DNA of 52,430 bases from Candidatus Hodarchaeum mangrovi (GTDB taxonomy: Archaea > Asgardarchaeota > Heimdallarchaeia > Hodarchaeales > Hodarchaeaceae). Under the pieces are notes generated by a model, which saw nothing but the letters and a program-made list of their open reading frames with translations, made no database searches and was not told where the DNA came from. The stretch spans positions 1-52,430 of the forward strand of contig JAEOUE010000138.1 of the NCBI GenBank assembly GCA_016839515.1, written 5' to 3'. This document shows positions 12,921 through 43,373 of the stretch, piece by piece. Position numbers and translations under genes: made by a program. Each line of letters begins with the position of its first letter. Position 1 is the stretch's first letter.

Positions 12921-14014
12921 TGCCAAATATTATAATTAAAAACCTTTCCAAAACTTTTGGGCATGTAAAAGCTCTAATTAAAGTTAATTTAGAAATTCAG
13001 GACCAGGAGTATGTTGGCATTCTCGGACCATCGGGTTGTGGCAAAACTACTCTAATAAACTGTATTACAGGGATTGTAGAACCTGATGAAGGATCAGAAA
13101 TTCTTATAGATGGAAGGAATATAATAGATCTTCCCATTGAAGATCGTGGTTTTGCAATGGTATTTCAAAGTATTACTTTGTTTCCTCATATGACAATTAA
13201 AGAAAATGTTGAATTTCCAAGTAGAATGACCGAGGTTTCAAAGGAAGAGATTGATAAAAGGACAATTAAAGCGTTAGAACTGGTTAATATATTAGCAGAA
13301 AAGAATTTGTATCCTCGTCAATTATCGAGTGGTGCCCAACAGGCAGCAGCAGTAGCTAGAGCGATCGCAAAAGGATCCAAGCTATTAATTCTTGATGAAC
13401 CAATTTCTGCTTTAGATGCTAAAGTAAGAACAGATCTACGTTATAGAATACGAAGTCTTGTAAAAGATCTTGGATTAACTGCCATTCATATTACTCACGA
13501 CCAACAAGAATGTCTATCAATCTCTGATCGTGTAGTATTAATGAAAAATGGGCGCATTCATGAGATTAATACTCCAAAAAATATGTACGAATACCCTAAT
13601 TCACTATTTACTTTGAATTTTGTAGGAGAAACAAACTTTATTGAAGGCTATATCTCCGATAAATTTGATGGTTCTGTTCAGCTTAAATTAAGAAATGATG
13701 TTACTTTAAAAATGAAGAATCAAGAGAATAAAAATATTGGTGAACCATTAGTCTTGGCAGTAAGACCTGAGAATGTAAGAATAAGTAGGAGAAAAAGTGG
13801 TGAAGAAAGCATTAAAGGAAAAATAATTGACTCTAGGTTTGCAGGAAGTTTCTATAGATTACAAATTCGATTGAGAACTGATGATATTATACTAGCGGAC
13901 TTCAAAGGGCCATTAAAACTAAATACATTGGTATATGTGTCATTTGACCCTTTAAGAACACAATTATTCCCCGTTCCCGAAGATGGATTAATGGAGGAAA
14001 TTTCTCTTGAGTAA
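12920..14014 (+). CDS. Second ABC importer ATP-binding subunit with TOBE domain
   Basis: GPSGCGKT, LSSGAQQ, ILDEPISALD, ITHDQQE, VRPENV; TAATG coupling to the previous gene. Confidence 0.9.
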   Translation: MPNIIIKNLSKTFGHVKALIKVNLEIQDQEYVGILGPSGCGKTTLINCITGIVEPDEGSEILIDGRNIIDLPIEDRGFAMVFQSITLFPHMTIKENVEFPSRMTEVSKEEIDKRTIKALELVNILAEKNLYPRQLSSGAQQAAAVARAIAKGSKLLILDEPISALDAKVRTDLRYRIRSLVKDLGLTAIHITHDQQECLSISDRVVLMKNGRIHEINTPKNMYEYPNSLFTLNFVGETNFIEGYISDKFDGSVQLKLRNDVTLKMKNQENKNIGEPLVLAVRPENVRISRRKSGEESIKGKIIDSRFAGSFYRLQIRLRTDDIILADFKGPLKLNTLVYVSFDPLRTQLFPVPEDGLMEEISLE

Positions 14015-14723
14015 AAAAGAAAAAAGTATGCTGAAATGGTTTAAAGAAAGAAGAAATACAAAAATCAAGCAGCTACTTTTACAACATGCAATAAAGGTCT
14101 TTGATGCTACTGCAGCTGGACAAGAATATCTAGATATAATCACAAGAGAGAATAATCCTCAAGATCCAAGATTAAAATCTATAATAAATCGAATTATAAG
14201 TTTAGAACGTGATGCAGACAAAATCGAGATTAGGTTAGGAAATGAGATTGCAAAGGGTTTTTTACCCTCAACAATACGTCAAAATTTATTTCGATTGTTA
14301 AAATCTGATGATTCAACAATCAATTTAATGAAATCAAGTATGAAATCATTGCATTTGCTGAATAATACAGATGATGAAGTCCCTATAAAAATTTTGGAAT
14401 ATTTTAAACAACTTTTGAATTTAATTCACGATTCAATTAGAATAGTTTGGATTTCGATTGAAAATCTTGGAGAAAATGACGAAATTATACTCTCAAATAA
14501 AGAAACAATCCTTGAGAACGAAAAAAAAGCAGATACTTTATTTTTAGAAGCAAAAGAAAAGATTCTAATTGGAAGAACACGAAGAGAACCTTTTTCAGCC
14601 ATTTTAAGTTTAATAGAGATCGCCACTGATTTGGAAATAGCTACTGATTCAGTTCGTGATACTGCTGAATTCTTAGTCGTCATTGTGAAAATAGGAATCG
14701 CAATTAATAAAGAAATCAAATAA
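14007..14723 (+). CDS. DUF47 / PhoU-like protein (copy 2)
   Basis: LERDADKI, NEKKADTL, LEIATDSVRD; N-terminus (SMLKWFK) resembles copy 1 (SLLHWFK). Confidence 0.8.
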   Translation: MSKKEKSMLKWFKERRNTKIKQLLLQHAIKVFDATAAGQEYLDIITRENNPQDPRLKSIINRIISLERDADKIEIRLGNEIAKGFLPSTIRQNLFRLLKSDDSTINLMKSSMKSLHLLNNTDDEVPIKILEYFKQLLNLIHDSIRIVWISIENLGENDEIILSNKETILENEKKADTLFLEAKEKILIGRTRREPFSAILSLIEIATDLEIATDSVRDTAEFLVVIVKIGIAINKEIK

Positions 14724-14807
14724 ATAAAATGAATCATGATCTTTGGATATAATGAAAAGAAATTTAAAATTTTCTTCCTTATATCGAAGATAAATAGAGA
14801 AGAAACA

Positions 14808-15383
14808 TTATTGCTTTTTTAGAATTCTGGAAACAAAGAAAAGAATGATGAGGAACTCTGAAAGATAGAATGAGGGGAAATAAACCTCATGAGGGGAAGT
14901 ATAAAAAATGTAATCCTTCCATTCATCCCAATGGACATAAACCTTATTAACCTGACCATAAGCAATGACTTCTCCAACATCTATAGCTGTTTGATCTACG
15001 ATTAGAACAATTCTGATTCGAATATTATTAGAAGGACAGGTGATATTAACTATCATATAAGAATTAGGAGATAGAGAAACAGGTAATCCATCCTCCTTAA
15101 TCTGTTGTTGTTGTGTCGAAGCAACACATTCCGTTCCTAAAATAGTGAAATTAAGAATGATCTCCTCTATTTTAAACGTTTGAGAACCATTATTGGCAAT
15201 ACCTAAAGAGAATTTACTCGAGGAGTAGAAGTCACCGTGACCTCCTTCTCCAACTGGACATGAACCCCAGCTAATGGTATGATTAAAAATAACCAAATCA
15301 ATGTCAATCTCATTCGTAGAGGAGACACTACCAGAGAGAAGAACCAAGACAAACAAAAATATTGTGATTAAATATTTCATCAT
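14808..15383 (-). CDS. Secreted hypothetical protein with signal peptide and C-terminal membrane anchor
   Basis: Hydrophobic N-terminus, beta-rich core, C-terminal FPSF...FLIILFFVSRILKKQ. Confidence 0.65.
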   Translation of the reverse strand: MMKYLITIFLFVLVLLSGSVSSTNEIDIDLVIFNHTISWGSCPVGEGGHGDFYSSSKFSLGIANNGSQTFKIEEIILNFTILGTECVASTQQQQIKEDGLPVSLSPNSYMIVNITCPSNNIRIRIVLIVDQTAIDVGEVIAYGQVNKVYVHWDEWKDYIFYTSPHEVYFPSFYLSEFLIILFFVSRILKKQ

Positions 15384-18885: not shown

Positions 18886-18933
18886 AGGCTTCAACCCCAA
18901 AATATTTAATTTTAAATTAATCGATTCCAATTG

Positions 18934-19518
18934 ATGAAAATACTTCTAAGTGCTGATTTCCACGGAGATTTTACACGACTTTTTCAGATTGCCAAGAATG
19001 CGGATATTTGCCTCTGTACTGGTGATATATTTGATTATCATCAATATCCAAAAAATTTTTCCTTTCCTATACCTTTTTATAGTATTAGAGGTAATAAAGA
19101 GATTTGGGGGGCCAATAACTTGGAAAGCAGATTGCATTCTTATAATAATTTCCATTGGTTACAAGAGTCTTATGATGAATTAATCGAATTAACTGGAATG
19201 TCTTTATTAGGAATTAATCACAATGAAACAAATAAATTACCTTCAAAAGAATATGATATGGTAATCTCTCATCAACCTGCGTACGGGTTTGCTGATCAAT
19301 GTAGTGATTCTTTCCATATAAAAATGATTAAGAATTGCGGAAGCAAAAATATTCGAAGATTAATAGATGAAAATCCTCCCAAGCTTTTTATTGCAGGTCA
19401 TGTGCACTATTTTCAACACCAAATAACTGATACGACAATATTTTATACTCTCGGACCAGCATTGACAAATCCTGTTTTAATACTTGATAAAAACAAGATA
19501 AAATTGTTTAATTATTAA
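18934..19518 (+). CDS. Calcineurin-like metallophosphoesterase
   Basis: ADFHG, TGDIFD, RGNKE, ISHQP, AGHVH. Confidence 0.88.
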   Translation: MKILLSADFHGDFTRLFQIAKNADICLCTGDIFDYHQYPKNFSFPIPFYSIRGNKEIWGANNLESRLHSYNNFHWLQESYDELIELTGMSLLGINHNETNKLPSKEYDMVISHQPAYGFADQCSDSFHIKMIKNCGSKNIRRLIDENPPKLFIAGHVHYFQHQITDTTIFYTLGPALTNPVLILDKNKIKLFNY

Positions 19519-19946: not shown

Positions 19947-20584
19947 TTACAATTTTTTATTAAAAACAAGTTCTAACGTATGTTCTATTCCAAATTCAGG
20001 AGAGGTTCTAATTGATCTTTGAACGTTTAATAAAGAAAGTCCTAAGGGTATAAAAATTTTACATATTTCCTTCTCTGAGTATCCTCGAGAATACATTATT
20101 TTACCCATAATATTAACAATAGTTTTTGTATCTAGATCCTCTTCAGGCTCAAATGGTTCATTCAAAGATAGATAGAAAAAACCTTAATGTTGTAAGGAAT
20201 GTACAATTCTTTTTGCTGCAGTATTGAATCTTGGGGTGTCAAATAGAACCATTGAACACTATGTTAAAACGCCTCCAAATTTGGCTTCAAAATTCATTTC
20301 CAACCTAGATAATTCCGAAATTCTGCATTTGGAACATTCTATCTAGCAATTTGAATCATACAGGAAGATATATCAATTCCAATAACAGAAAAGTTACTAT
20401 CGACAAGAACTTTAGCAAAATGAATTCCAGTACCTAAACCGATACCTAGAACTCGACATTTTGGTTTCAATTGGCCATAAAAATAGTCAAAAGTTTTAGT
20501 AAGTTTACTATGTCCACTTGTAGCATAATGATCTGCAACACGATTCCATGCGATTCGATTTAATTCCACAATATCTTGTTTCAT
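19947..20584 (-). pseudogene. Decayed class I SAM-dependent methyltransferase
   Basis: N-part WNRVA..Y...VLGIGLGTG...VIGIDIS..MIQIAR* reads on as NVPNAEF; after a frameshift EMNFEAKFGGVLT*CSMVLFD...RIVHSLQH*GF; after another frameshift FYLSLNEP, which joins ORF 19947..20165. At least 3 stops and 2 frameshifts. Confidence 0.78.
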
Positions 20585-20620
20585 GATAATAAACTTAATC
20601 AGAATCAATCAAAATGCTAG

Positions 20621-22855
20621 TTACCAGGTAGAAACTACTTTTTTTAGATTGTCAATATTCAAATAATCAGTTGTAAATGCTTTTTGCTGCATTTTTTTCG
20701 ATAAATAATGGTCATAGCGTTCTAATAGAAACTTCTCATTTGAATCAATAAGGTCTTTAGGGGAATTAACTGATTTTACAATGTTTTTGAGAAGCTCTGT
20801 TAATTCAGAAGGATTATTGATATCCTCAGAATCAAAGGTTATGAAATACGGTTCAGGATCAATTCTGGGAGGTGGACGAACATGAGAAATACCATAATCC
20901 TTTCCAATAAATCGCAATATACGATGTAAAGTTTGGTACTCTATAGTCCCGACCCAAGGAAATAAAGCAAACCGTTTTCCAGACAATTTGAACACAACCT
21001 CAGTGTCCAAATGATTTTTCGATCCCCACGTCCGAGCTTCAGTAATCCGTCTTTTTGCACCATCTTGAAGATAACCATAAAGGGTATTTTCAAGTAAAAT
21101 CGAACGCATTTTTTGCAGAACTTTAGTGTGAGTATCAGGACGGCGGCCAGGCCAGACATAGAAAGCACGTTCAATTTTTTTTACCAAAAGAAGCTTTTGA
21201 TGAGGATGAATTTCCGTTACTTCCCATGCATCACCAGCAATGAGAACAGTTTCACCAGGAAATAACATTCGATCAATGTGACCGAGTTCTCGTAAAGTGA
21301 CTTCTTCTTTAATGCTGAATTCCACAGAATAATCACGAAAAACAGCATAAAAACGAAAATTTCGAACAATTTTTTCTCCTGTTAATCCAACAATTAACCC
21401 GCCATCTTGTAATTGTTCAATATGATTGATAGAAATCAGATGTTGGATTAAATCACGGAAAGTATTTTGATTGACATATTTGAAGGGTGATAAAGTTAAA
21501 ACACGGTGAGCTAAGCTTGCAGGTGATAGCTCCCCACTACTGGCAAGAATACTCATGGTTTGATGATACAATAGACTAATCGGAAATTTTAGCTGAATCG
21601 CAGGTTCAATCCATTTTTCTTCTAAATAGAGCTGAATTATACTAATTGTCTGTAAAAAATACCATGGAAGTGTTCGGGTAAAGGAAACTTTCTCTGAAGG
21701 AGGGTCTTCTGATATGACAAACATCATTTCAGAAGGCTGATTCAAGCGTCGTCCCGATCGCCCAAGGCGTTGTACAAAGCTTGATACGGAAGAAGGAGCA
21801 AGCAGTTGAATAATTCGTTCGATTCCTCCGATATCCATACCTAATTCAAGAGTTAAGGTTGCAGCAGTAACATGAGGTTCATCATCATCTTTCATAAAGG
21901 TTTCAGCTGATTCACGAAGCAAATTAGCGATGCAAGAATGATGAACGTGGTATCTATCAGGATATCCACGGTGTAAAGCAATCTCTCGAAGTCCTCGTGT
22001 TACCAATTCTGTTGCTTCTCTTGTATTAGAAAAAATAATCACTTTCTTACCCAATGTATTTTCAAAAATATACCGATGTGAAGGGAGAGCCTCCCCAAAA
22101 ATAGGTAGAGTTTCTCTTGTGGTGGCTCCGATCCAAGTTGGTTCAAGAAAGTGTTCTACTGCCAATCTAATCTTTCGGGGTGGTTCAACAATATCAGGAA
22201 CAATGACTGGAATATTTGTGCCTGAAGCGAGCCAATTTGCTGCATAGGAAGGATCCCCAATTGTAGCTGATAAACCGATTCTACGGGGAATACGGTCAAT
22301 TTCCCGTGAAACCCTCTCCAATTGAGCTAAAATTTGTCGGCCACGATCACCACCCATAAAACTATGAACTTCATCAATTATTATAAATCGTAAATCCCCG
22401 AAAAGTCTGCATATTTCTAGTTTTTTGTTAATCAAGATACTTTCGAGGCTTTCAGGAGTTATTTGTAGTATGCCACGAGGATTTGCCATTAATTTATTCT
22501 TATGACGTTGATCAACATCACCATGCCATCTATATACAGGAATATTAGCCTCTTTTAAAAGGTTTTCAACTCGTTTAAATTGATCATTAATCAATGCTTT
22601 TAAAGGTCCAATATATAAAATACCAAGGCTAGAAGCTGGGGAAGCATCTAATAATGTTAATGCTGGAAGTAATGCTGCTTCTGTTTTCCCTGAAGCGGTA
22701 CCAGAGCATAATAATAAGTGTGAATCCGAGTCAAAAATGGCTTTTGCAGCTTCAATTTGGATTGGACGGAATTCTTCCCAACCCTCTTGATAAATCCATT
22801 CTTGAATCCAGGGTGTAAGACGGGAAAATTGTTCAGAACCAGCCAAATTTACCAA
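20621..22855 (-). CDS. Lhr-like DEVH-box SF2 helicase, Shango SngC-like (copy 2)
   Basis: Q-motif FRPIQ, GTASGKT, PLKALINDQ, TPESLE, DEVH, SAT, TLELGMDIG, QRLGRSGRR. Confidence 0.9.
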   Translation of the reverse strand: MVNLAGSEQFSRLTPWIQEWIYQEGWEEFRPIQIEAAKAIFDSDSHLLLCSGTASGKTEAALLPALTLLDASPASSLGILYIGPLKALINDQFKRVENLLKEANIPVYRWHGDVDQRHKNKLMANPRGILQITPESLESILINKKLEICRLFGDLRFIIIDEVHSFMGGDRGRQILAQLERVSREIDRIPRRIGLSATIGDPSYAANWLASGTNIPVIVPDIVEPPRKIRLAVEHFLEPTWIGATTRETLPIFGEALPSHRYIFENTLGKKVIIFSNTREATELVTRGLREIALHRGYPDRYHVHHSCIANLLRESAETFMKDDDEPHVTAATLTLELGMDIGGIERIIQLLAPSSVSSFVQRLGRSGRRLNQPSEMMFVISEDPPSEKVSFTRTLPWYFLQTISIIQLYLEEKWIEPAIQLKFPISLLYHQTMSILASSGELSPASLAHRVLTLSPFKYVNQNTFRDLIQHLISINHIEQLQDGGLIVGLTGEKIVRNFRFYAVFRDYSVEFSIKEEVTLRELGHIDRMLFPGETVLIAGDAWEVTEIHPHQKLLLVKKIERAFYVWPGRRPDTHTKVLQKMRSILLENTLYGYLQDGAKRRITEARTWGSKNHLDTEVVFKLSGKRFALFPWVGTIEYQTLHRILRFIGKDYGISHVRPPPRIDPEPYFITFDSEDINNPSELTELLKNIVKSVNSPKDLIDSNEKFLLERYDHYLSKKMQQKAFTTDYLNIDNLKKVVSTW

Positions 22856-25056
22856 TCCTTCACCATTTGTTTGAGATGTGGTAAATCTAAGTGATCAAAA
22901 ATGAATGATTTTTGTTGGAGAGTTAATGGAAGATATTCATCAAATTTATTAATCAATAATTTTTCTTTTTCATCATAAAGCATGTGTTCATTTGTGGTTA
23001 TGACTAATGATTGAATATATTCTTCTATTGTTTTAAGATCCATTGGTTCACACTCGAAACGCAAATAATAAGGAGATTGTCCACTAATTTTTGAAAATTC
23101 AAGAAAATTTGGATCACTAGTCTTTAAAACACGTTCAAGAGTCCTATATGCAGTAGTTCCAAGCCAAGGAAATAGGCAATATTTACCTTCTGCTAGCATG
23201 TATAGGTATTGAGAATCAAGATTGACTTCTCGGGCTAATTTTCGAGCTTGATTTAGACGTAAACTAGCACCAGGCTGGAGATAACTATATTCGTTAATTT
23301 CAAAAAGAATCTTACGGATTTTCTGAACAACTCTTGTGTGAATCGGAGCTACATCGCCAGGCCATATATAACGCATTCTACCAGCAACTTTTTTAACTAG
23401 CATTACTCTTTGTTTCGGTAAAGCTTCTTGGACTTCCCACATAAATCCTGCAAGTGGAAACCGTTCTCCTGGAAGTAAAAGGCTTCCTAATTTTCCTATT
23501 TCATTTGCACCTTGTTTAACAGTCCATTCCACAGAGTCCTGAAAAACTGCATAGAAATGATAATTTCTAATGATCTTTTCTCCTTCAAGTCCGACTATTA
23601 ATCCCCCATCCTCTATCTGTTCAATATGCTGGATTTCAAGTAAATGTTGGATTAATTCATTGAAATCATCCTGTGTGATTTTTCGGAAGGGAGGTAATTC
23701 AAGAAGTCGTTTAGCCAATCCTTGAGATGATAGTTCTCCGCTACTAGCCAAAATGCTCATAGTTTGATGATATAATAAACTAAAAGGATAGCTAGGTGGG
23801 GGTAATGGCTCAATCCATTTTTCTTCAAGGTAAAGTTGAATTATTGCAATGGATTGTAGAAGATCCCAGGGAAAAAGATAAGGTAAAGGTTTATTGTCAG
23901 AGGGTTCATCCTCTGAATGTACAAAAAGTATTTCAGAAACATTTGATCGTCTGCCTGATCTGCCTAACCTTTGTAAAAAACTGGTAACAGATCTAGGAGC
24001 ATTAAGTTGAATGATTCTTTCTAAAGTACCAATATCTATCCCTAATTCTAAAGTAATGGTGGCAGCGGTCGTTGTAGGATATATATCTTCTCTCATGCTT
24101 GCTTCAGTACTTTCTCGTAAAGCTCCTGCAATGCTTCCATGGTGTACATGATAATTATCTGGTTGACCTTTTCGTGCAGCTACATCTCGTAATGTAGCAA
24201 TCACACTTTCAGCTTGTTCTCTTGAATTTGTAAATATCAAGCTTTTCTTACCTAAGGTCTGTTCGTATAGAAAGTCAATTGCTGGAGGAATATTCTTAGT
24301 AGATTTAAATATTCGTGTAGCATAAGGATTTAGTTGAGAGGGTATTGGATTAGGATTTATAAAATGCTCTACAGCAAGCCGAATCTTCTTTGTTCCTCCC
24401 CCTACTATTGGAGTCTGAACCTTTTCACTTGTACCTGAGGCCAACCATGTTTCAGCAAGAGAATAATCACCAAGTGTAGCAGAAAGTCCAATTCTCCGGG
24501 GATGATATCCAATTATGGAAGCAATTCTTTTCAATTGACTTAAGATTTGGCTACCCCTATCACTATTCATAAATGAATGAACTTCGTCTATGATTATAAA
24601 TTGGAGATCGCCTAACATTCTTCTTATTTCAAGGTTCTTATTTATTAGAATGCTTTCGATTGACTCTGGTGTTATTTGCAAGACCCCAGAAGGATTTTTC
24701 ATCAGTTTCTGTTTTCGATCTTGGGGAACATCTCCATGCCATCTCCAAACACGGATATTCGCGTCTTCTAATAGACCTTCCAATCTACTAAACTGATCAT
24801 TTATCAGTGCTTTCAACGGGGAGATATATAAAATACCGATTGTTGAGGAGGGTTTTTCATACAATAGAGTTAAAGCTGGTAAGAATGCTGCTTCAGTTTT
24901 TCCTGAGGCAGTACCTGTTGATAGAAGTAAATGATCACTTGAATTAAAAATAACATCAGCTGCAGCAACTTGAATCTCTCGTAACTCTTCCCACCCTGAG
25001 GAATATATCCATTCTTGAATAAACGGAGCAAAACGATTAAAGAGATTATTACTCAT
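22849..25056 (-). CDS. Lhr-like DEVH-box SF2 helicase, Shango SngC-like (copy 1)
   Basis: LREIQ, GTASGKT, PLKALINDQ, TPESIE, DEVH, SAT, HHGS, TLELGIDIG, QRLGRSGRR; ATGA overlap with the ATPase gene. Confidence 0.9.
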   Translation of the reverse strand: MSNNLFNRFAPFIQEWIYSSGWEELREIQVAAADVIFNSSDHLLLSTGTASGKTEAAFLPALTLLYEKPSSTIGILYISPLKALINDQFSRLEGLLEDANIRVWRWHGDVPQDRKQKLMKNPSGVLQITPESIESILINKNLEIRRMLGDLQFIIIDEVHSFMNSDRGSQILSQLKRIASIIGYHPRRIGLSATLGDYSLAETWLASGTSEKVQTPIVGGGTKKIRLAVEHFINPNPIPSQLNPYATRIFKSTKNIPPAIDFLYEQTLGKKSLIFTNSREQAESVIATLRDVAARKGQPDNYHVHHGSIAGALRESTEASMREDIYPTTTAATITLELGIDIGTLERIIQLNAPRSVTSFLQRLGRSGRRSNVSEILFVHSEDEPSDNKPLPYLFPWDLLQSIAIIQLYLEEKWIEPLPPPSYPFSLLYHQTMSILASSGELSSQGLAKRLLELPPFRKITQDDFNELIQHLLEIQHIEQIEDGGLIVGLEGEKIIRNYHFYAVFQDSVEWTVKQGANEIGKLGSLLLPGERFPLAGFMWEVQEALPKQRVMLVKKVAGRMRYIWPGDVAPIHTRVVQKIRKILFEINEYSYLQPGASLRLNQARKLAREVNLDSQYLYMLAEGKYCLFPWLGTTAYRTLERVLKTSDPNFLEFSKISGQSPYYLRFECEPMDLKTIEEYIQSLVITTNEHMLYDEKEKLLINKFDEYLPLTLQQKSFIFDHLDLPHLKQMVKDW

Positions 25057-26387
25057 ATTTGAAATTCCTCATATTCTGTTCCACTTACTTCATCATCTTT
25101 ATTGAGTGTTTCCTGAGGTCTAAAATCTTCACCACTAATCAATTCTAACAATGTTTTTTTATCTGCTTGTTTTCGTAATTGATTAAGCAAAAAAATGAAT
25201 TCTCTAACGAATTCACGTGGTGTCAGTAATTTATCAGCTCCAATACGGCTGACCATGATTTTTATAAATTCTTGAATCTCTGAATCATTGATTAAAGATT
25301 TATAACTATAATATTTTTCATGAATGACGATAATTTTTGTTAGTAAAACAAAAATTTCTTCTAATGTTAATCTTTCAAGTTTTATAACAGGACCAGAAAA
25401 ATCCTGAATTCCTTCTTTTAAAAAACGACTGCCAACAAGGCGGGAATGTAGTGCTTTGTAGGAATAAAGTCCTCGGCGCTTATCCTCTAAAAATTGGGGT
25501 GTACCTCCAATAAAAACTCCAAGATATTCAGCTTTTCCCTGAAGAGTATCATTATACATTGTAAGTAATTTTTCGTAGTTGTTTACTCTTGATGTAGTAT
25601 GAGTGATCTTATAAAGATTTACTGCCTCATCAAAAAAGACCAATAATCCTTTATATCCTATCTCGGTAACAAAACGAGCCATTAGCTTAATATAATCATA
25701 CCAATTATCATCAGTGATTATAATACTCAAACCAGGAATAGCATTTCGAGCTTCTGTTTTTGTTGGATATTCTCCGCGTAACCACTTTAATGCTGCCTCT
25801 TTAATGCTATCATCTTGTGTTCTGTGTCCATGCCAATAAGTTGAAATGACATTTGCGAAATCAAATCCATGAACTAAATCTTTAATAGTTGATATTGCTT
25901 CGAGAATTTTCTCATCAACTTTCTCTGTAAATAATGTATCTTGTGGTTTAATTCCTTTTGCTACAACTTCACTTTGAATTGAAGATATCCATTTTTCTAA
26001 AATTGCTGTTAAAGCTCCTCCATTGGGTCTTGTTTTTGTCGAAAGGTTTTTCATTAATTCACGATACGTTGCGACTCCCTTTTCCCCTGCTCCAATAAAT
26101 CGTCGTTCTGGGGAGAGATCTACATCACAAACAACAAATTCCTGTTGCATAGCGTAATTTCTGATTAATTGAATCAAAAAACTCTTTCCAGAGCCAAATC
26201 GGCCTATGAAAAACCGAAAACCAGCTCCACCCATTTTGATATTCTCTAAATCTTCAATAATTGATTCAATTTCCTCTCTTCGCCCCACTGCGATATGTTC
26301 TAATCCAATTCTTGGAACGACTCCTGCTGATAATGCTTTAAGAATAGTAGCTGAGACTCGTGATGGAATACGTATATCATGCGACAT
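25053..26387 (-). CDS. DUF2791 / BrxD-like P-loop ATPase, Shango SngB-like
   Basis: AGVVPRIGLEHIAVGR..E, Walker A GRFGSGKS, DLSPERR, KWLRGE, Walker B LLVFFDE, NYEKLL..YND.LQG, TPRE. Confidence 0.9.
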   Translation of the reverse strand: MSHDIRIPSRVSATILKALSAGVVPRIGLEHIAVGRREEIESIIEDLENIKMGGAGFRFFIGRFGSGKSFLIQLIRNYAMQQEFVVCDVDLSPERRFIGAGEKGVATYRELMKNLSTKTRPNGGALTAILEKWISSIQSEVVAKGIKPQDTLFTEKVDEKILEAISTIKDLVHGFDFANVISTYWHGHRTQDDSIKEAALKWLRGEYPTKTEARNAIPGLSIIITDDNWYDYIKLMARFVTEIGYKGLLVFFDEAVNLYKITHTTSRVNNYEKLLTMYNDTLQGKAEYLGVFIGGTPQFLEDKRRGLYSYKALHSRLVGSRFLKEGIQDFSGPVIKLERLTLEEIFVLLTKIIVIHEKYYSYKSLINDSEIQEFIKIMVSRIGADKLLTPREFVREFIFLLNQLRKQADKKTLLELISGEDFRPQETLNKDDEVSGTEYEEFQI

Positions 26388-26402
26388 TTTGGACTACCTA
26401 TG

Positions 26403-29400
26403 TTATGAAATAATAAATTCAAATTCCTCTTTATATTCCTCTATCAAGGTAAAATGTTCTGAATCAATAATTAAATCACCAATGATCTCAAGGGCAATTT
26501 CATTCATCTGCTCTATCATCGTTTGGGGTAGAAGTAATTGTTCATCAGCTATTTTTGTTATCAATTCTATTAAATTTTCAGCCTTAAGGATAATTTTGAT
26601 TATTTGCTGCTGATTGGAAGTCAATGAATGCCAAAGTTCAAGTAATGATTCTCTAATACTGATATTTTCATTAAGAGGGGTTTTCAAGTTTTCTATAGAA
26701 GTATGCTTGGCCTCTTGTAATAAATTCTTGGTTTCTTTGTCATCTAATTCTTCAAATTCCTCACTAGTACTTAATAATGATTGAACTACTTCTGAATCTT
26801 TAGTTAATTTTCTAACTTGGGTTCGATCTAAATTTATTGTACCTGATTGAACTTCTAATGCAATTTGCGAAATTTCTGGGGTCAGATCTAAATTAAAAGC
26901 TTCTAGGCAATAGTGATCTATTATTGCTCTTATCTCTGGTATTTCAAGATTTACTTTTAATGAACCTTTGGTTGAATCAATAGCTGCTTCTCTTAATCTA
27001 TTTTGAATATATTTAAGGATATTAATGAGTATTTCCTTTAAAATAGGTGGATAGGAAGTAAAAGTAATTATTTTGTTTTCGCCATAATATCGTGCTCTTG
27101 AAAAAGGTATTCGTTTCTCTAAAACAGCATTAAAATATTGAAAAAGGTTTTTTTCAAATCGGTTTTTATAATAAGAGAGGATTTTTTTCATAATTGCCTT
27201 AACATGCCGATTAAAAGTTTGTTTATCAAGACGTTGATAATATGGAGTTTTGGAATATCCCAGCCAATCATAATAAAGATCCAAGTCAATTTCAAATTCA
27301 TTGGTTAATGTTTGTGATATTAATAACTCTCTGAGTTCGTCAACTATCTTCTTAAGACGTTTAGTGTTTAACCATTTATCAAATTTTTTTAATACGGCAA
27401 ATTGAATATCTACTGGAGTATCTTGTACAATTAGATATTCAATTATCCACTCTGGAAGTAGTTCATCAAGTTGTGAATATTCATTTCGATAATTAAGCCA
27501 TAATACAAGTAAATTTTGATAACCTGATAAAACAGATTCAATTCCTAGATTATTTATAATTTCATAGGCATAGAGTAAGATATATCCTAATTGAGTTTCA
27601 ATATACCGTTCTTTTCTAATATTAGCGCGAAAAAAATAATAATACTTTAATTGTGATTCTGTCATCTCACGAAAATCTGGTCGATAAGCATAAAGAGGAA
27701 CAAGATTTATTGGTTGATCTATACTGCCTTTTTTAATATTTTTTTTCGCAAATTCGATAAAGGATAATGTCTCTTGAGGTTCTCGTTCTTTATAATATAA
27801 TAAAAATCTCGTTACTTGGTTTTCTATAATCTTCTCGATATCTTTATCCAAAAAATTACTTTTTCTAATGTCCTTGAATCTATAATATAACTTTAATTTG
27901 TTTTCTAGCTGCCTTATAATATCACTAATAAATGACAGTAGAGGTATATGTTTAGAATATGGATATAATTCTACTACTCTAGTTGGTTTTAATGCTGCTC
28001 TCTCAAAGGCAAATCTTGGTTTTTTAGATGGTTGGAATTTCTCTAAAATTCCTCCTCCTTCAATATCTATTAAGTATTTATCAATTTCGTTCAAAATTTG
28101 AGGAATAAGATCATTTAAAATATCAGTTTTTATAAGATAAAATGGTGAATTAAATAAATCATTATTTCCAAGAGTATTTATCCATTCAATTGGCATTTTG
28201 TTAAATGAGACCTTAAAGATATTTAAGATTGAATCTAATCCCTCAATAATATACTCTGTAGGATTTACTAATATCTCTGTTAAAATGTCTGTACTTAGAT
28301 CTTGAATTTCATATAATAAAACATAATCTGTTATCCATTGAATCAGATACCTATCTAGTTTAGGAAAATGTTTTCGATAGTTGATCCAAATGGTAGTAAG
28401 TTCATTAAATCCTTCTCTATTTCCCTTCTCCAAAATATCATAAATTAAGACAAAAATATAGGACAAATCTGTTCTAATGAAATTGTTTGCACGAATTTCT
28501 TCAACCCAATAGTCGTACCATGTTCTCTGATCTTCTGTCATTGATTGAAGAGTAGGCCAATATTGTTTAAAGGGAACAAATCTTGGTTTTTTTGATATTG
28601 GTTCTTGTTCTTCTTTTTGGAGAATAGTATCAAAATTATTTTTAGTGCTTTCTTGAAAAAAAGCCTTTTGATTTGTAATATTTTTCGACATTGTCTTCAT
28701 TTTATAATCTAATAAAGTCAATTCCTTTTTAAGATCAAGAGGTTGAATATCAACCCCAGAAAAATTGGTAGATTGTGAATTTAAATTTATTTCATATTCT
28801 GCAAATCTAGGTTCCATTTTAGTATCGTTAGATTCTTGAATATTCTCAAAGGTATTGTGGAAGAAATTATTGATTATAGTTTGAATTTCTAAATCGAGGA
28901 ATAATTTCTTAATGATTGGTCGTCTTTGAATTTTTAATTCAATATAGTTTAAAATTTCTGACAGAATCCTCTTTAATTCTACGTTTGATGCTAACCATTT
29001 GAAATATTGGTCAATTAAAATTGTTGGAGTAATTTGAGGAGAAACTATTAGATTAAATTTCGAATTAGGTTGATAAAATTGAAAAATTCCAACATTCTCT
29101 GTTTTTTCATAGTGTTCATTAATTTTTTCAATAATTGGAGTTACAATTTGTTGCATAGTATGGAAATTTCCACTTTTACAATAATCACTCCCATAAACTG
29201 ATGAATAGACTATATAATTTAACATTTTAAGAGGAAATTGAGTTCTAAGGCATTCCAAATACTTAAAGAGAAATAATTTAACCTGTCTATCAGATATGGA
29301 ATATCCTTCAGTACCAACTAGAGTTCCTTTAGGATTTAAAATGAATTGACCTTTTGAGTGAAAATATCCCCAAATCATTACTTCTACTATAATTTTTTGA

Positions 29401-29549
29401 GGAGCCGTGCTATCTTGTGCACTTTTTTTGTATACGTGCCCTATAACTTCAACTGTTCTTGCTTCTTCTCCTTGATCTTCGAGAACTGGGACTTTTATTA
29501 TGATTGAAAAAAATTCTCCTTGATTGACTGTCTTTCCAGGATGAACCAA
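26403..29549 (-). CDS. TerB_N / TerB_C domain protein, Shango SngA-like, with duplicated TerB_N and a long unique N-terminus
   Basis: Two copies of VP..Y.P....M...Q..Y.....IR......T.L.YI....Y.I; C-terminal INLDRTQVRKL..DS..V..LL...IEQMNEIALEIIGDLIID. The true start is probably upstream (29660-29676). Confidence 0.82.
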   Translation of the reverse strand: MVHPGKTVNQGEFFSIIIKVPVLEDQGEEARTVEVIGHVYKKSAQDSTAPQKIIVEVMIWGYFHSKGQFILNPKGTLVGTEGYSISDRQVKLFLFKYLECLRTQFPLKMLNYIVYSSVYGSDYCKSGNFHTMQQIVTPIIEKINEHYEKTENVGIFQFYQPNSKFNLIVSPQITPTILIDQYFKWLASNVELKRILSEILNYIELKIQRRPIIKKLFLDLEIQTIINNFFHNTFENIQESNDTKMEPRFAEYEINLNSQSTNFSGVDIQPLDLKKELTLLDYKMKTMSKNITNQKAFFQESTKNNFDTILQKEEQEPISKKPRFVPFKQYWPTLQSMTEDQRTWYDYWVEEIRANNFIRTDLSYIFVLIYDILEKGNREGFNELTTIWINYRKHFPKLDRYLIQWITDYVLLYEIQDLSTDILTEILVNPTEYIIEGLDSILNIFKVSFNKMPIEWINTLGNNDLFNSPFYLIKTDILNDLIPQILNEIDKYLIDIEGGGILEKFQPSKKPRFAFERAALKPTRVVELYPYSKHIPLLSFISDIIRQLENKLKLYYRFKDIRKSNFLDKDIEKIIENQVTRFLLYYKEREPQETLSFIEFAKKNIKKGSIDQPINLVPLYAYRPDFREMTESQLKYYYFFRANIRKERYIETQLGYILLYAYEIINNLGIESVLSGYQNLLVLWLNYRNEYSQLDELLPEWIIEYLIVQDTPVDIQFAVLKKFDKWLNTKRLKKIVDELRELLISQTLTNEFEIDLDLYYDWLGYSKTPYYQRLDKQTFNRHVKAIMKKILSYYKNRFEKNLFQYFNAVLEKRIPFSRARYYGENKIITFTSYPPILKEILINILKYIQNRLREAAIDSTKGSLKVNLEIPEIRAIIDHYCLEAFNLDLTPEISQIALEVQSGTINLDRTQVRKLTKDSEVVQSLLSTSEEFEELDDKETKNLLQEAKHTSIENLKTPLNENISIRESLLELWHSLTSNQQQIIKIILKAENLIELITKIADEQLLLPQTMIEQMNEIALEIIGDLIIDSEHFTLIEEYKEEFEFIIS

Positions 29550-29920
29550 ACCAAAGGCAATCCGTGGTGGAGCAGGAAAAATGTCATTAAATGGTTCAAA
29601 AATGTCTGATGAACTTTCTGTATTCTCTAGTTCAGAAATTATCCTAAAAAGTGGTTCCGTTAGGGGGTTCCTCCATGATTAGATTATAACTTTAAAATTC
29701 TTTACTATAGAATAACAAATTATAGAGCTTAAATAATTGTCAACATTCTTATATTTCTTTTAATCCCTTTCTTCAAAAATATATGAGTTTCATTTTAATC
29801 TTTCAAATATCCTATCTCATTTTTTAGATTATATAATAATATTTTACTATGAGACAAGAGATAAGGCCCTGATAAAAACCTGAAACATCTGAAAACGACT
29901 TTCACTTCATCTATAACATT

Positions 29921-30184
29921 TTATTCAGCTATAACATCTTCATTATTATCATAAGGTCTATTAACCGTGGGATTGAGGGAGATTCGTTTGATTTTCCCTT
30001 TTTGAGGTTCATAAAGCACACCTCTTCGAATAAGAATCCTCAAAACATTAAGGATCGTATTTTCAGAATAACCTAGCTGTTTTATTTCGCTGATAATTTG
30101 AAGACTTTCAATAGACTTATTTTTTGATCGATTAAAAATAGCATTCAGATGTTTTTCTATTTGTTGAAAATCAGGGATACTCAA
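29921..30184 (-). CDS. Small stand-alone winged-helix protein (MCM/RPA2 C-terminal WH-like)
   Basis: IISEIKQLGYSENTILNVLRILIRRGVLYEPQKGKIKRI matches the L...G..YEP..G....V/I pattern. Confidence 0.6.
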   Translation of the reverse strand: MSIPDFQQIEKHLNAIFNRSKNKSIESLQIISEIKQLGYSENTILNVLRILIRRGVLYEPQKGKIKRISLNPTVNRPYDNNEDVIAE

Positions 30185-40776: not shown

Positions 40777-42084
40777 TTAAACTGGTTTCAGATAACCCCA
40801 TTTCTCTAATGCCCGTTTTAATTCAGGGCTAGAGCGAGCCTTCTCTTCTAGTGTTATGTTTTCTTTCCATGCTTCAATTGCTTGAACTGTTGCTTTACTC
40901 CCAGCATATGTACCATCTGGATGACCATGAATACCTCCACCAACCTGTAATACCATGTCAGTCGTTCCATACACGGTTAAAACTTCGGGTAACACTCCTG
41001 GATGCAATCCTCCTGATGCACAGGGCAATGTTGCTTTCATCGTTCCCCAAGATTGAGATAGGTGTCTTCCTTCATCTTCTAAGATTTCTTGATTAAGTAA
41101 TAAATCGCGCATATCAAGAACATCCTGTTTTGGGCTATCTAATTTACCTACCACGGTACCAATATGGATAGTATCCACTCCAATTAGTCTCATTAATTTT
41201 GCAAGAAAGTACATACTAATTCCATGATTAGAATGCTTTGTAAAAGTTGCATGCATAGCACGATGAGCGTGAATTGCCATATCTAAATCCCCGGCTAGAT
41301 TACGCATTGTTTGTACAGCAGAAAATCCAGTTGTTACAATATCAACCATGAAGTATTTAAAGCCATTTTCATGAATGATTTCCACTCTTTTCTCCATTTC
41401 ATGTGTTTCAGCTGTTACGTTGATCAAAGCATCTTTAATTTCTCCAGTTTCTTGTTCTGCTTTATCACGGGTTTTAGCCAGTTGCTCAACTCGATCTTTA
41501 AATTTATTAAACGATTGAGAGGTTAAATTTTCATCATCTTTAATTAAGTCCACTCCTCCAGTCCAGGCATCCCACCCTACTTTACAATGTTGTTCAACAG
41601 TCATTCCAATCTTAGGTTTAGGGACACAGGCCAATAAAGGTCCTTCTTTTTTAAATATTCGTTCAATTGCCTCAACTCCCATATTTGGACCAGGTGATCC
41701 TTTAATATATTCAATAGGTAAAGAAGTATCAATTAAGCGTAAATTCTTAACCGCTTTCATCCCAAAAATATTACCTGCAATACCTGACATGAGTTGAGGA
41801 ATATTATTAAGTTCCCATAATACCAGAGGATAGGAGATCTTAACCAAGTTGTCAGTATTCCAGAACGATCTCCCTCTCATGCTATAAATTCGATCATCAA
41901 GAGTTTCTAACGTAGTCCAAGTCCCAATTGAGGATTCAGAAGCTAATCTTCCTATTGTATCATCAATTGTAATCTCATCTGCTTTATCAAAGTAATAAAG
42001 CGCAATTAATTCATCGCTTTTTGGTTTATATCCCCGATCGATGAAATCATGATACCATTCAATTTTTTCTTTGTCATTGGTCAT
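40777..42084 (-). CDS. rbcL: Ribulose-1,5-bisphosphate carboxylase, form III (archaeal)
   Basis: ASESSIGTW, AGNIFGMK, VPKPKIG, DLIKDDE, HAHRAMH, loop-6 GTVVGKL, SGGLH, GGGIHGHP. Confidence 0.93.
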   Translation of the reverse strand: MTNDKEKIEWYHDFIDRGYKPKSDELIALYYFDKADEITIDDTIGRLASESSIGTWTTLETLDDRIYSMRGRSFWNTDNLVKISYPLVLWELNNIPQLMSGIAGNIFGMKAVKNLRLIDTSLPIEYIKGSPGPNMGVEAIERIFKKEGPLLACVPKPKIGMTVEQHCKVGWDAWTGGVDLIKDDENLTSQSFNKFKDRVEQLAKTRDKAEQETGEIKDALINVTAETHEMEKRVEIIHENGFKYFMVDIVTTGFSAVQTMRNLAGDLDMAIHAHRAMHATFTKHSNHGISMYFLAKLMRLIGVDTIHIGTVVGKLDSPKQDVLDMRDLLLNQEILEDEGRHLSQSWGTMKATLPCASGGLHPGVLPEVLTVYGTTDMVLQVGGGIHGHPDGTYAGSKATVQAIEAWKENITLEEKARSSPELKRALEKWGYLKPV

Positions 42085-42314: not shown

Positions 42315-43373
42315 GTGAAAACGATTCATCAAATTTTTTATCAAAATGCTCAGGATATGAACCAGATCCCAGAAGAGAGCGTTGATCTGGTTATCACCTC
42401 TCCACCTTACCCAATAATTGAAATGTGGGATGATCTTTTTGGAAATTTAGATTCAAATATCAGATATGCACTCAACTCTGGAAATGGTGATCAAGCTTTT
42501 AAGTTAATGCATCAACAGCTGGATAAAGTCTGGAGAGAACTTTATAGAGTCTTAAAAAAGGGTGGTATCGTCTGTATTAATATTGGTGATGCTGTAAGGA
42601 CATTTAACAAAAAATTTTCACTTTATCCAAACCATTCCCGAATTATTCAAGTTTTTCGAGAAATTGGGTTTAATAGTCTCCCAGTGATCATCTGGACTAA
42701 ACCAACCAATGCTCCTAATAAGTTTATGGGGTCTGGTATGCTCCCTCCAACCGCCTATGTTACTTTAGAGCATGAATACCTACTAATATTTCGTAAAGGT
42801 AATAAAAGAGAATTTCTTCTTTCTACTGATAAAGAGCGGCGAAGAAGTAGTGCCTTTTTTTGGGAGGAGAGAAATGTATGGTTTAGTGATCTTTGGGATT
42901 TGAAAGGAGTTTCACAACAGATGTCCTCAGCTTTAGGAAGAGATAGAAGTGCTTCTTTTCCTTTTGATTTAGCCTATCGTTTAATCAATATGTACTCAAT
43001 TCAGGAAGATTTAATTTTAGATCCTTTCTTAGGAACAGGAACTACAAGTCTTGCAGCTATAGTATCTGGGAGAAATAGTATTGGATTTGAATTAGTTGAT
43101 GAATTAGCTCCAATAATCACAGAAAAACTCCAAAGTGCTAGAATGATGTCTAAGTCTATAATTGAGCAGCGGATAAGAAATCATAAACTCTTTATTCAAC
43201 AACAAATTGAAAATGGTAAAATAATGAAGTATATAAATGAAGTATATAATTTTCCTGTAATGACGAAGCAAGAAGACCAAATTCGATTTCAAATCGTCAA
43301 TGAAATTTTAGTCAAAGCCAAGAATACTTTTGAAGTATTCTATGAATCTTACAAGATGCTTTCAGATAATTAA
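42315..43373 (+). CDS. Orphan beta-class amino-DNA methyltransferase (m4C-type SPPY), M.MthZI/Zim-like
   Basis: TSPPY precedes DPFLGTG; family blocks KFMGSGMLPP.AYVT.EHEY.LIFRK, SAFFWEERN.WFSD, AYRLINMYS. Confidence 0.88.
   Translation: MKTIHQIFYQNAQDMNQIPEESVDLVITSPPYPIIEMWDDLFGNLDSNIRYALNSGNGDQAFKLMHQQLDKVWRELYRVLKKGGIVCINIGDAVRTFNKKFSLYPNHSRIIQVFREIGFNSLPVIIWTKPTNAPNKFMGSGMLPPTAYVTLEHEYLLIFRKGNKREFLLSTDKERRRSSAFFWEERNVWFSDLWDLKGVSQQMSSALGRDRSASFPFDLAYRLINMYSIQEDLILDPFLGTGTTSLAAIVSGRNSIGFELVDELAPIITEKLQSARMMSKSIIEQRIRNHKLFIQQQIENGKIMKYINEVYNFPVMTKQEDQIRFQIVNEILVKAKNTFEVFYESYKMLSDN

Follow-up and report, generated by a model that had tools for sequence, protein, structure and literature searches.

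Do four tightly coupled genes in an archaeon, two of them encoding helicases, make up a defence system of their own, or are they an unusual arrangement of one that is already known? The question is raised by contig JAEOUE010000138.1 of Candidatus Hodarchaeum mangrovi (assembly GCA_016839515.1), analysed here as one stretch of 52,430 nucleotides (the window), on whose minus strand a first-pass annotation had recognised an expanded operon of the anti-phage system Shango and the best local candidate for an undescribed system. According to the reports that describe it (PMC10250203; 10.1101/2022.05.11.491447), Shango comprises three genes, encoding a TerB-like protein, an ATPase and a helicase; its anti-phage activity is modest to clear, and in both P. 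aeruginosa (PA14) and E. coli it lowered the plating of phages. Judged by protein models, gene order and phylogeny, the operon is a genuine member of this family, a four-gene subtype with the order SngA-SngB-SngC1-SngC2. The idea of an undescribed system had to be dropped, given that the Shango family is known and already reported in Asgard archaea, in whose genomes it is enriched according to the accessible part of that source (PMC11291487). What is new is a rare layout of known Shango, with two helicases and a multi-module SngA, and not a new system.

The assignment is carried by gene order and profile matches. Both the table of open reading frames (ORFs) and the sequence place the four co-oriented genes between 20621 and 29549, with a 15-nt gap between SngA and SngB (CATAGGTAGTCCAAA, read from the sequence), a 4-nt ATGA overlap between SngB and SngC1 and, between SngC1 and SngC2, either a 7-nt overlap (with the TTG at 22855 as start) or a 2-nt gap (with the TTG at 22846, the start implied by a stored 741-aa copy, P0219), in agreement with the coupling first noticed. 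All three Shango models of PADLOC match in the order A-B-C, with E-values of 1.8e-74 (SngA), 5.1e-178 (SngB) and, for the single SngC model, 1.5e-232 (SngC1) and 8.8e-218 (SngC2); the SngB model is covered from 4 to 429 of 439 positions and the SngC model almost end to end by each helicase. Runner-up models are clearly weaker (BrxD for SngB, 8.1e-49; BrxHI for the helicases, 2.7e-123 and 1.2e-113), and SngB stays below the cut-off of the NCBIfam BrxD equivalog (168 bits vs 350). Pfam likewise agrees with the domain content first proposed (a TerB_N/TerB_C protein, a DUF2791/BrxD-like ATPase and two Lhr-like DEVH helicases), finding TerB_N in two stretches (5.2e-31) and TerB_C in SngA, BrxC_BrxD (4.1e-160) in SngB, and DEAD and Helicase_C in each helicase. 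These E-values are far beyond chance.

Compared with three-gene Shango (PADLOC PDLC03958-03960), the operon thus has SngA-, SngB- and SngC-type proteins of the same three families, in the same order and orientation and tightly coupled in one contiguous operon, but it departs from the original composition in having four genes, with SngC present twice as 53%-identical paralogues. A caller based on hidden Markov models that needs the three core genes would, in our reading, still call the locus Shango.

One coordinate did not hold, namely the 5' end of the operon, which had been set at an ATG at 29676. This ATG is in another frame than the TerB ORF and runs into a TAG after ten codons; the sngA frame is open from 29678, and its first in-frame ATG, GTG or TTG is the TTG at 29549. 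The gene most likely begins at this TTG, 127 nt short of the ATG, because P0305, a fragment from elsewhere that is 88% identical to SngA, begins at the same residue, and because the 43 codons upstream show no similarity to the N-terminus of P0304, the best full-length SngA relative (441 of 2000 shuffled versions score at least as high). That these 43 codons are open is weak evidence, since about 18% of all 43-codon stretches in this AT-rich DNA have no stop. A longer SngA, reached from the ATG through a frameshift, was considered and ruled out by the unlike upstream peptide, by the start of P0305 and by the BLASTP alignment, in which the first 58 residues of the protein read from the TTG take no part (it begins at aa 59). 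A scan for sigma-70-type promoters, a model inapplicable to archaea, found 47 against 46.1 expected from shuffles.

Table 1. Genes of the four-gene Shango operon, its leader and the modules of SngA (coordinates of the window)
Feature	Position	Strand	Basis
sngA, TerB_N/TerB_C protein, 1048 aa, TTG start	26403..29549	-	PADLOC SngA and Pfam
sngB, BrxD-like P-loop ATPase, 444 aa	25053..26387	-	PADLOC SngB and Pfam PF10923 (formerly DUF2791)
sngC1, Lhr-like DEVH helicase, 735 aa, first paralogue	22849..25056	-	PADLOC SngC
sngC2, Lhr-like DEVH helicase, 744 aa (741 if TTG 22846 is the start), second paralogue	20621..22855	-	PADLOC SngC
5' non-coding region or leader, with the out-of-frame ATG 29676	29550..29920	-	sequence and ORF table
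Partial (distal-half) TerB_N-type module, SngA aa 92-235	28845..29276	-	own module profile, E 1.3e-11
TerB_N module 1 (extra copy), SngA aa 312-493	28071..28616	-	local TerB_N profile, 5.9e-42, model 14-198; Pfam best stretch 319-431
TerB_N module 2, collinear with canonical SngA, aa 594-794	27168..27770	-	local TerB_N profile, 1.7e-33
TerB_C, SngA aa 897-1041	26427..26861	-	Pfam PF15615, 1.9e-09, 38.3 bits vs cut-off 26.3

Are the two helicases a recent copy or an old pair? SngC1 and SngC2 align over their full length (396 identical residues of 741), and motifs I, Ia, II (DEVH), III and VI are intact in both, as they are in 14 of 14 other complete rows of the archaeal helicase clade; the sequence P0245 is without its N-terminus. 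At 30 columns that discriminate the two clades, the bacterial consensus is followed by SngC1 in 11, by SngC2 in 10 and by neither in 9, a symmetric divergence which argues that neither copy is decaying. Each has relatives of its own: P0122, P0123, P0125, P0126, P0127 and P0128 are 58-59% identical to SngC1 and 48-53% to SngC2 (BLASTP), P0129, P0131 and P0241-P0244 are 56-61% identical to SngC2, and P0245 is 55% identical over 91% of SngC2 and is placed by the trees among the C2-type. Where labels are given, they read Promethearchaeota, Hodarchaeales, Heimdallarchaeota or Thorarchaeota.

For the comparison with bacterial homologues that the first-pass annotation had proposed, the careful helicase tree holds 30 rows, that is, all 16 rows of the archaeal clade, both copies of a two-helicase locus from Bacillota (L035, see below) and 12 bacterial rows picked by hand from more than 200 matches and 68 locus helicases, all others being left out. 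The archaeal clade is supported at 100/100, and inside it the C1-type (7 rows, 98/95) and the C2-type (8 rows, 100/100) form sister clades of paralogues; a quick tree of 49 rows agrees. In each of the two clades the window copy pairs with an 'lgn' protein, a tight five- or four-member group stands separate, and the branching orders mirror each other. Two mirrored paralogue clades imply that the duplication predates the split of the window lineage from its relatives. Furthermore, SngB P0003, C1-type P0122 and C2-type P0242 bear one and the same label ('6 contigs, longest 49979'), and so do SngB P0002, C1-type P0125 and C2-type P0244 ('longest contig 34866'). Since two Asgard-labelled sets thus each hold an SngB and both helicase types, the pair is old and has probably been inherited together, a small group of Asgard archaea appears to have the layout in common, and the rare four-gene arrangement seems to characterise a small Asgard clade.

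The same data bear on whether the second helicase, or the whole operon, could be an artefact, whether of faulty assembly, of a repeat that was collapsed or expanded, or of a contaminating bacterial contig. The window does look metagenome-type, and bacterial SngB (57-59%) and SngC (about 53%) proteins are only slightly more distant than the Asgard ones. Such an artefact is nonetheless very unlikely, indeed barely credible: the helicase genes are 71-76% identical in DNA over their best repeat, which is too diverged for an assembly duplication, each helicase has a separate set of orthologues in further assemblies with Asgard labels, and the GC content at third codon positions (GC3) of the operon genes (0.19-0.245) matches that of the flanks (0.221 +/- 0.029 in the other 34 window genes), which include an archaeal-type RuBisCO. 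With the operon GC3 inside the range of the other genes, bacterial contamination or recent transfer is not indicated.

As for the host, the assignment to Asgard archaea rests on the operon proteins and the type of RuBisCO. The nearest relatives of SngB, SngC1 and SngC2 are labelled Hodarchaeales, Promethearchaeota, Heimdallarchaeota and Thorarchaeota; a taxonomy look-up places Candidatus Hodarchaeales and Promethearchaeota in Promethearchaeati, which we take to be the Asgard group and to include the Heimdallarchaeota and Thorarchaeota labels. The RuBisCO is of type III (541.9 bits vs an NCBIfam cut-off of 497.45). The archaeal background noted at first therefore stands, but its novelty does not. 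The operon differs from described Shango in its archaeal host and its position outside a defence island; the archaeal setting as such is not new, since enrichment in Asgard genomes is in print (PMC11291487, as above), and a canonical three-gene Shango is found on the haloarchaeal plasmid NZ_CP096023.1 of Halocatena salina (58893-64754, L081). On that plasmid, a BREX-5 pglZ gene and one related to helicases immediately precede the operon, whose SngB is only remotely related to those of the Asgard clade.

SngB itself keeps its ATPase motifs intact, with a Walker A motif GRFGSGKS and a Walker B motif FFDE, and residues G65, G67, K68, D253 and E254 are invariant across 28 aligned homologues. Its nearest relatives are Asgard-labelled (69-73% identity) and the next are bacterial (57-59%, at most 59%). 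In a tree of 40 rows, the five Asgard-type SngB proteins form a clade with 100% support within an unresolved bacterial radiation, a long way from the copy on the haloarchaeal plasmid; as this tree has no root, we make no claim as to which way a transfer went. SngB-like ATPases that are 49-57% identical to the window protein also occur at six bacterial loci (L008, L033, L060, L062, L064 and L071) where no SngC is detectable in the 4.6-10 kb of downstream DNA, and this ATPase is therefore also found outside Shango-type operons.

How rare, then, is a second helicase? A genome scan with the 28-sequence SngB alignment gave at least 582 confirmed matches, from which 80 loci, all bacterial, were kept. 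Among the matches listed, an SngC match of at least 400 aligned residues is present in 68 of the 80, six loci with room for a helicase have an SngB-like gene and no SngC, and a second helicase appears at one of the 61 Shango loci with room for one. On plasmids, SngC-type matches at E<=1e-100 lie in 616 places in 616 records, so none of these records holds two, with the proviso that a strongly diverged second SngC could score below that threshold. No description of a two-helicase or multi-TerB_N Shango was found in a literature search largely confined to journals that need no subscription. The four-gene variant proposed at first is consequently upheld as to its two helicases and their rarity, but it is not unique, being apparently shared with related Asgard contigs and present at the one bacterial locus.

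This locus, L035 (JAKPGJ010000008.1), comes from a metagenome-assembled genome of Bacillota. Its order according to PADLOC is SngA-SngB-SngC-SngC, as in the window, and again the helicase genes overlap (by 11 nt) and both copies keep their motifs intact. Its helicases are each other's sisters (100/100), so that the duplication is independent of the Asgard one. It further differs in its short SngA (512 aa, a single TerB_N) and in its setting, which is a defence island, unlike that of the window. A viperin-like radical SAM gene (PADLOC pVip, 4.2e-16) lies at 13838-15241 (+) of this locus, 3 kb from Shango.

The second elaboration concerns SngA, whose sequence divides into about two and a half TerB_N modules followed by TerB_C, instead of the single TerB_N module of canonical SngA. 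The TerB duplication suggested at first is hence internal to one protein: modules 1 and 2 are 33% identical over 108 aa (E 3e-16). The PADLOC SngA model matches in two stretches, the best of them joining aa 591-1044 to model positions 81-524 of 528, and in Pfam the TerB_N score is 108.4 bits against a cut-off of 25. For the N-terminus (aa 1-300), Pfam gave nothing at E<=1, and a new sensor domain was considered there; it was ruled out by a profile of 302 positions made with the full modules, four in all, of window SngA and P0304, to positions 148-295 of which aa 92-235 align as half a TerB_N-type module, as happens in P0304 (4.2e-13) and P0305 (4.5e-09). P0304 (1153 aa, 37% identical) has the same module layout. 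A protein-atlas search with it returned only TerB_N/TerB_C clusters (scores 0.83-0.85), a lead at most. No enzymatic domain or transmembrane helix was found in SngA (Pfam; highest 19-residue Kyte-Doolittle mean 1.26), no PDB relative by sequence, and no TerB domain PF05099 among its Pfam matches at E<=0.01, which are TerB_N and TerB_C only. Surveillance of the membrane through SngA is unsupported, since all four operon proteins lack transmembrane helices. The domains of Ter systems have reportedly been analysed by Anantharaman, Iyer and Aravind in 2012; the Pfam scan of the 39 other window ORFs has no ter genes.

In 75 bacterial proteins at the SngA position, the local profile finds a single TerB_N module 66 times, no module 9 times and two modules in no case; Pfam agrees on the 19 that it was run on. 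Two or three TerB_N stretches appear in 9 of the 13 top SngA representatives scanned with Pfam, a set biased towards multi-module proteins since the query itself has two modules, and P0312 reaches four modules by the local profile; such proteins mean that TerB_N has also multiplied repeatedly in other places. This does not go with the number of helicases, as the Bacillota locus has two of them and one module. Among SngA-like proteins in general, P0308-P0312, P0316, P0328 and P0345 carry two to four TerB_N modules, and P0316 has in addition a TM2 membrane domain. At the other extreme, the genes before SngB at four cyanobacterial loci (L001, L002, L010 and L033) are without a TerB_N module by the local profile; in that of L001, the one among the four on which Pfam was run, TerB_C and coiled coils are matched, and L001 and L002 retain SngC, a short-SngA form of the operon.

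What might such an operon do? By homology with three-gene Shango, its function would be antiviral defence, and on balance we lean towards an antiviral four-gene Shango subtype in which SngA serves as scaffold or sensor, SngB as switch or loader, and the helicases as effectors that form a heteromeric two-motor unit. Defence would then act directly on viral nucleic acid and not through cell killing. SngA would be a non-catalytic platform built of repeats, SngB an ATP-driven switch or loader, as is assumed for its BrxD relatives, and the Lhr-like helicases the working end, which may translocate on the invader's intermediates of replication or transcription and unwind or strip them; SngC1 and SngC2, being co-translated, would act jointly and not as alternatives. 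These roles are assigned in this way because the four proteins have no recognisable nuclease, toxin or membrane segment (Pfam, hydropathy) and because the helicases resemble Lhr and YprA in the motor core only. Among solved structures, the nearest in sequence are those of Lhr (5v9x, 7lhl; about 1e-28) and YprA (6znp), over a range of 2.8e-28 to 5.6e-24, and these matches cover the RecA core alone (aa 7-381); the C-terminal 133 and 143 aa of the SngC proteins give sub-threshold noise only in Pfam at E<=1. A joint heteromer is favoured because of the translational coupling, the long co-retention, the intact motifs with symmetric divergence and the recurrence in Bacillota.

The main rival is that the two helicases are sub-functionalised paralogues, used alternatively and not in one complex, each with the shared SngA and SngB, which would widen the range of substrates or viruses or allow escape from viral inhibitors. 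We regard it as unlikely, though it accounts for several observations. Whereas the RecA1 domains of the copies are 65-70% identical, identity falls to 30% over aa 211-260 and to 28-35% over aa 601-735, and is thus lowest in the parts likely to determine specificity for a partner or substrate; both copies keep full catalytic motifs; and as the duplication arose twice independently, an arms-race benefit fits as well as a heteromer does. Nevertheless, genes that overlap by 7 nt and trees that mirror each other point to stoichiometric co-production and to joint inheritance, and the C-terminal region is 37-39% identical within the paralogue clades and 32-34% between them, which means that it is about as variable within as between and that its divergence is not paralogue-specific.

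Several points weigh against the heteromeric antiviral reading itself. The mode of action of Shango is still given as open (10.1101/2025.09.30.679545; 10.1101/2024.10.26.620412). The pairing of SngC1 with SngC2 in one complex is something that we purely infer, and so is the adjacency of the helicase genes in the Asgard relatives, deduced from matching labels and not seen. The pair may also not be universal in the archaeal clade: for two C2-type proteins, P0129 and P0131 (the latter going with SngB P0004, label 73777), the 120 best matches include no C1-type partner, and the Bathyarchaeota protein P0124 branches low in the clade and joins the C1 side weakly (88/72). A model in which one TerB_N module docks each helicase is ruled out by the Bacillota locus. 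Finally, the neighbours of the operon are metabolic or housekeeping genes and not a defence island.

This last point leads to another explanation, that the module has been domesticated for the upkeep of the chromosome (such as repair or the removal of R-loops, in the manner of Lhr-type helicases elsewhere) and has lost its role in defence. A housekeeping neighbourhood with no integrase, transposase or defence island, a fully ameliorated codon composition, the long retention of the pair in a small archaeal clade and the resemblance of the helicases to Lhr and YprA/MrfA, which are DNA-repair helicases, would all suit it; neighbourhood and composition are compatible with domestication and no demonstration of it. 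We consider it quite improbable, given that for all four proteins the Shango models far outscore those of repair helicases, with Lhr-type equivalogs at roughly 166-214 bits against about 850 (TIGR04121, 213.7 and 203.2 bits vs a cut-off of 850; PRK13767, 181.7 and 165.4 bits vs 849). SngA is moreover fast-evolving (37% to its best full-length relative vs 73% for SngB), a pattern that defence sensors typically show. Defence systems can also lie outside islands, and Shango is counted among the defence systems enriched in Asgard archaea in the accessible part of the report cited above (PMC11291487).

The absence of integrases and of other defence genes nearby, remarked on from the start, is confirmed for the 39 other ORFs of the window by Pfam (no integrase, transposase or recombinase) and for 23 of them by PADLOC, where a type II DNA methyltransferase, at a distance of 12.8 kb, is alone in giving a strong defence-type match; the rest (PDC-S10, mad2 and the C-terminal end of the BrxHI model) are weak, partial or generic. 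A flanking mobile element was ruled out likewise, as there are no direct repeats beyond chance-size matches and no integrase.

Two known groups help to place the proteins. With BREX, the operon shares the pairing of an ATPase with an Lhr-like helicase (the BrxD and BrxHI module, whose models SngB and the helicases match), but a TerB_N/TerB_C protein stands in place of the BREX core, SngB remains below the BrxD equivalog cut-off, and genes of the PglZ, PglX, BrxC, BrxA and BrxB types are absent from the 39 ORFs (Pfam) and the 23 of those run against PADLOC. With Lhr, Lhr-core and YprA (MrfA), its best solved sequence relatives, it shares the SF2 DExH core, but the match is limited to the RecA core, the equivalog scores are about a quarter of the cut-offs or less, and the operon partners are others.

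Preferring the heteromeric antiviral reading, we also put forward, tentatively and as a rather doubtful extension, an obligate two-motor subtype, in which a SngC1-SngC2 heteromer would be assembled on SngA and loaded by SngB, the same solution having been reached independently in Bacillota. If this were true, helicase dosage or pairing would be the functional core of Shango, a first mechanistic handle on the family. Two kept helicase paralogues and an independent bacterial case point in any event to the helicase as the part of Shango selected for elaboration. The family is widespread, as its Asgard enrichment and the plasmid relatives of SngB (on 686 of 72,556 PLSDB plasmids) indicate, and for annotation this means that 'Shango' calls in Asgard genomes can conceal a four-gene subtype with a multi-module SngA. 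As far as the evidence goes, there is no bearing on eukaryogenesis.

Some features of the surroundings are worth recording in their own right. The window contains no tRNA or Rfam match. The 822-aa ORF at 46417-48885 (-) has no Pfam, NCBIfam or PADLOC match. The methyltransferase mentioned above, of the type II N6/N4 DNA class, lies at 42315-43373 (+) (PADLOC MTase_II, 7e-148) with no restriction enzyme recognised beside it, and is flanked by the type III RuBisCO (40777-42084) and an aldo/keto reductase. A calcineurin-like phosphoesterase at 18931-19518 (+), 1.1 kb beyond sngC2, accounts for the PDC-S10 match (4.7e-12), which is perhaps that of a generic domain. Directly after sngC2, a class I SAM methyltransferase is present as two pieces in different frames (19947-20183 and 20339-20608, both -), the first 89 aa of which match positions 31-80 of 216 of NCBIfam NF043040, with a 78-aa piece further on, so that it looks like a pseudogene. 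On the other side of the operon, and in its orientation, an 87-aa ORF at 29921-30184 (-), 371 nt upstream of the sngA start, has sub-threshold matches to the MCM C-terminal winged helix (5e-4 to 7e-4) and is possibly a small DNA-binding regulator.

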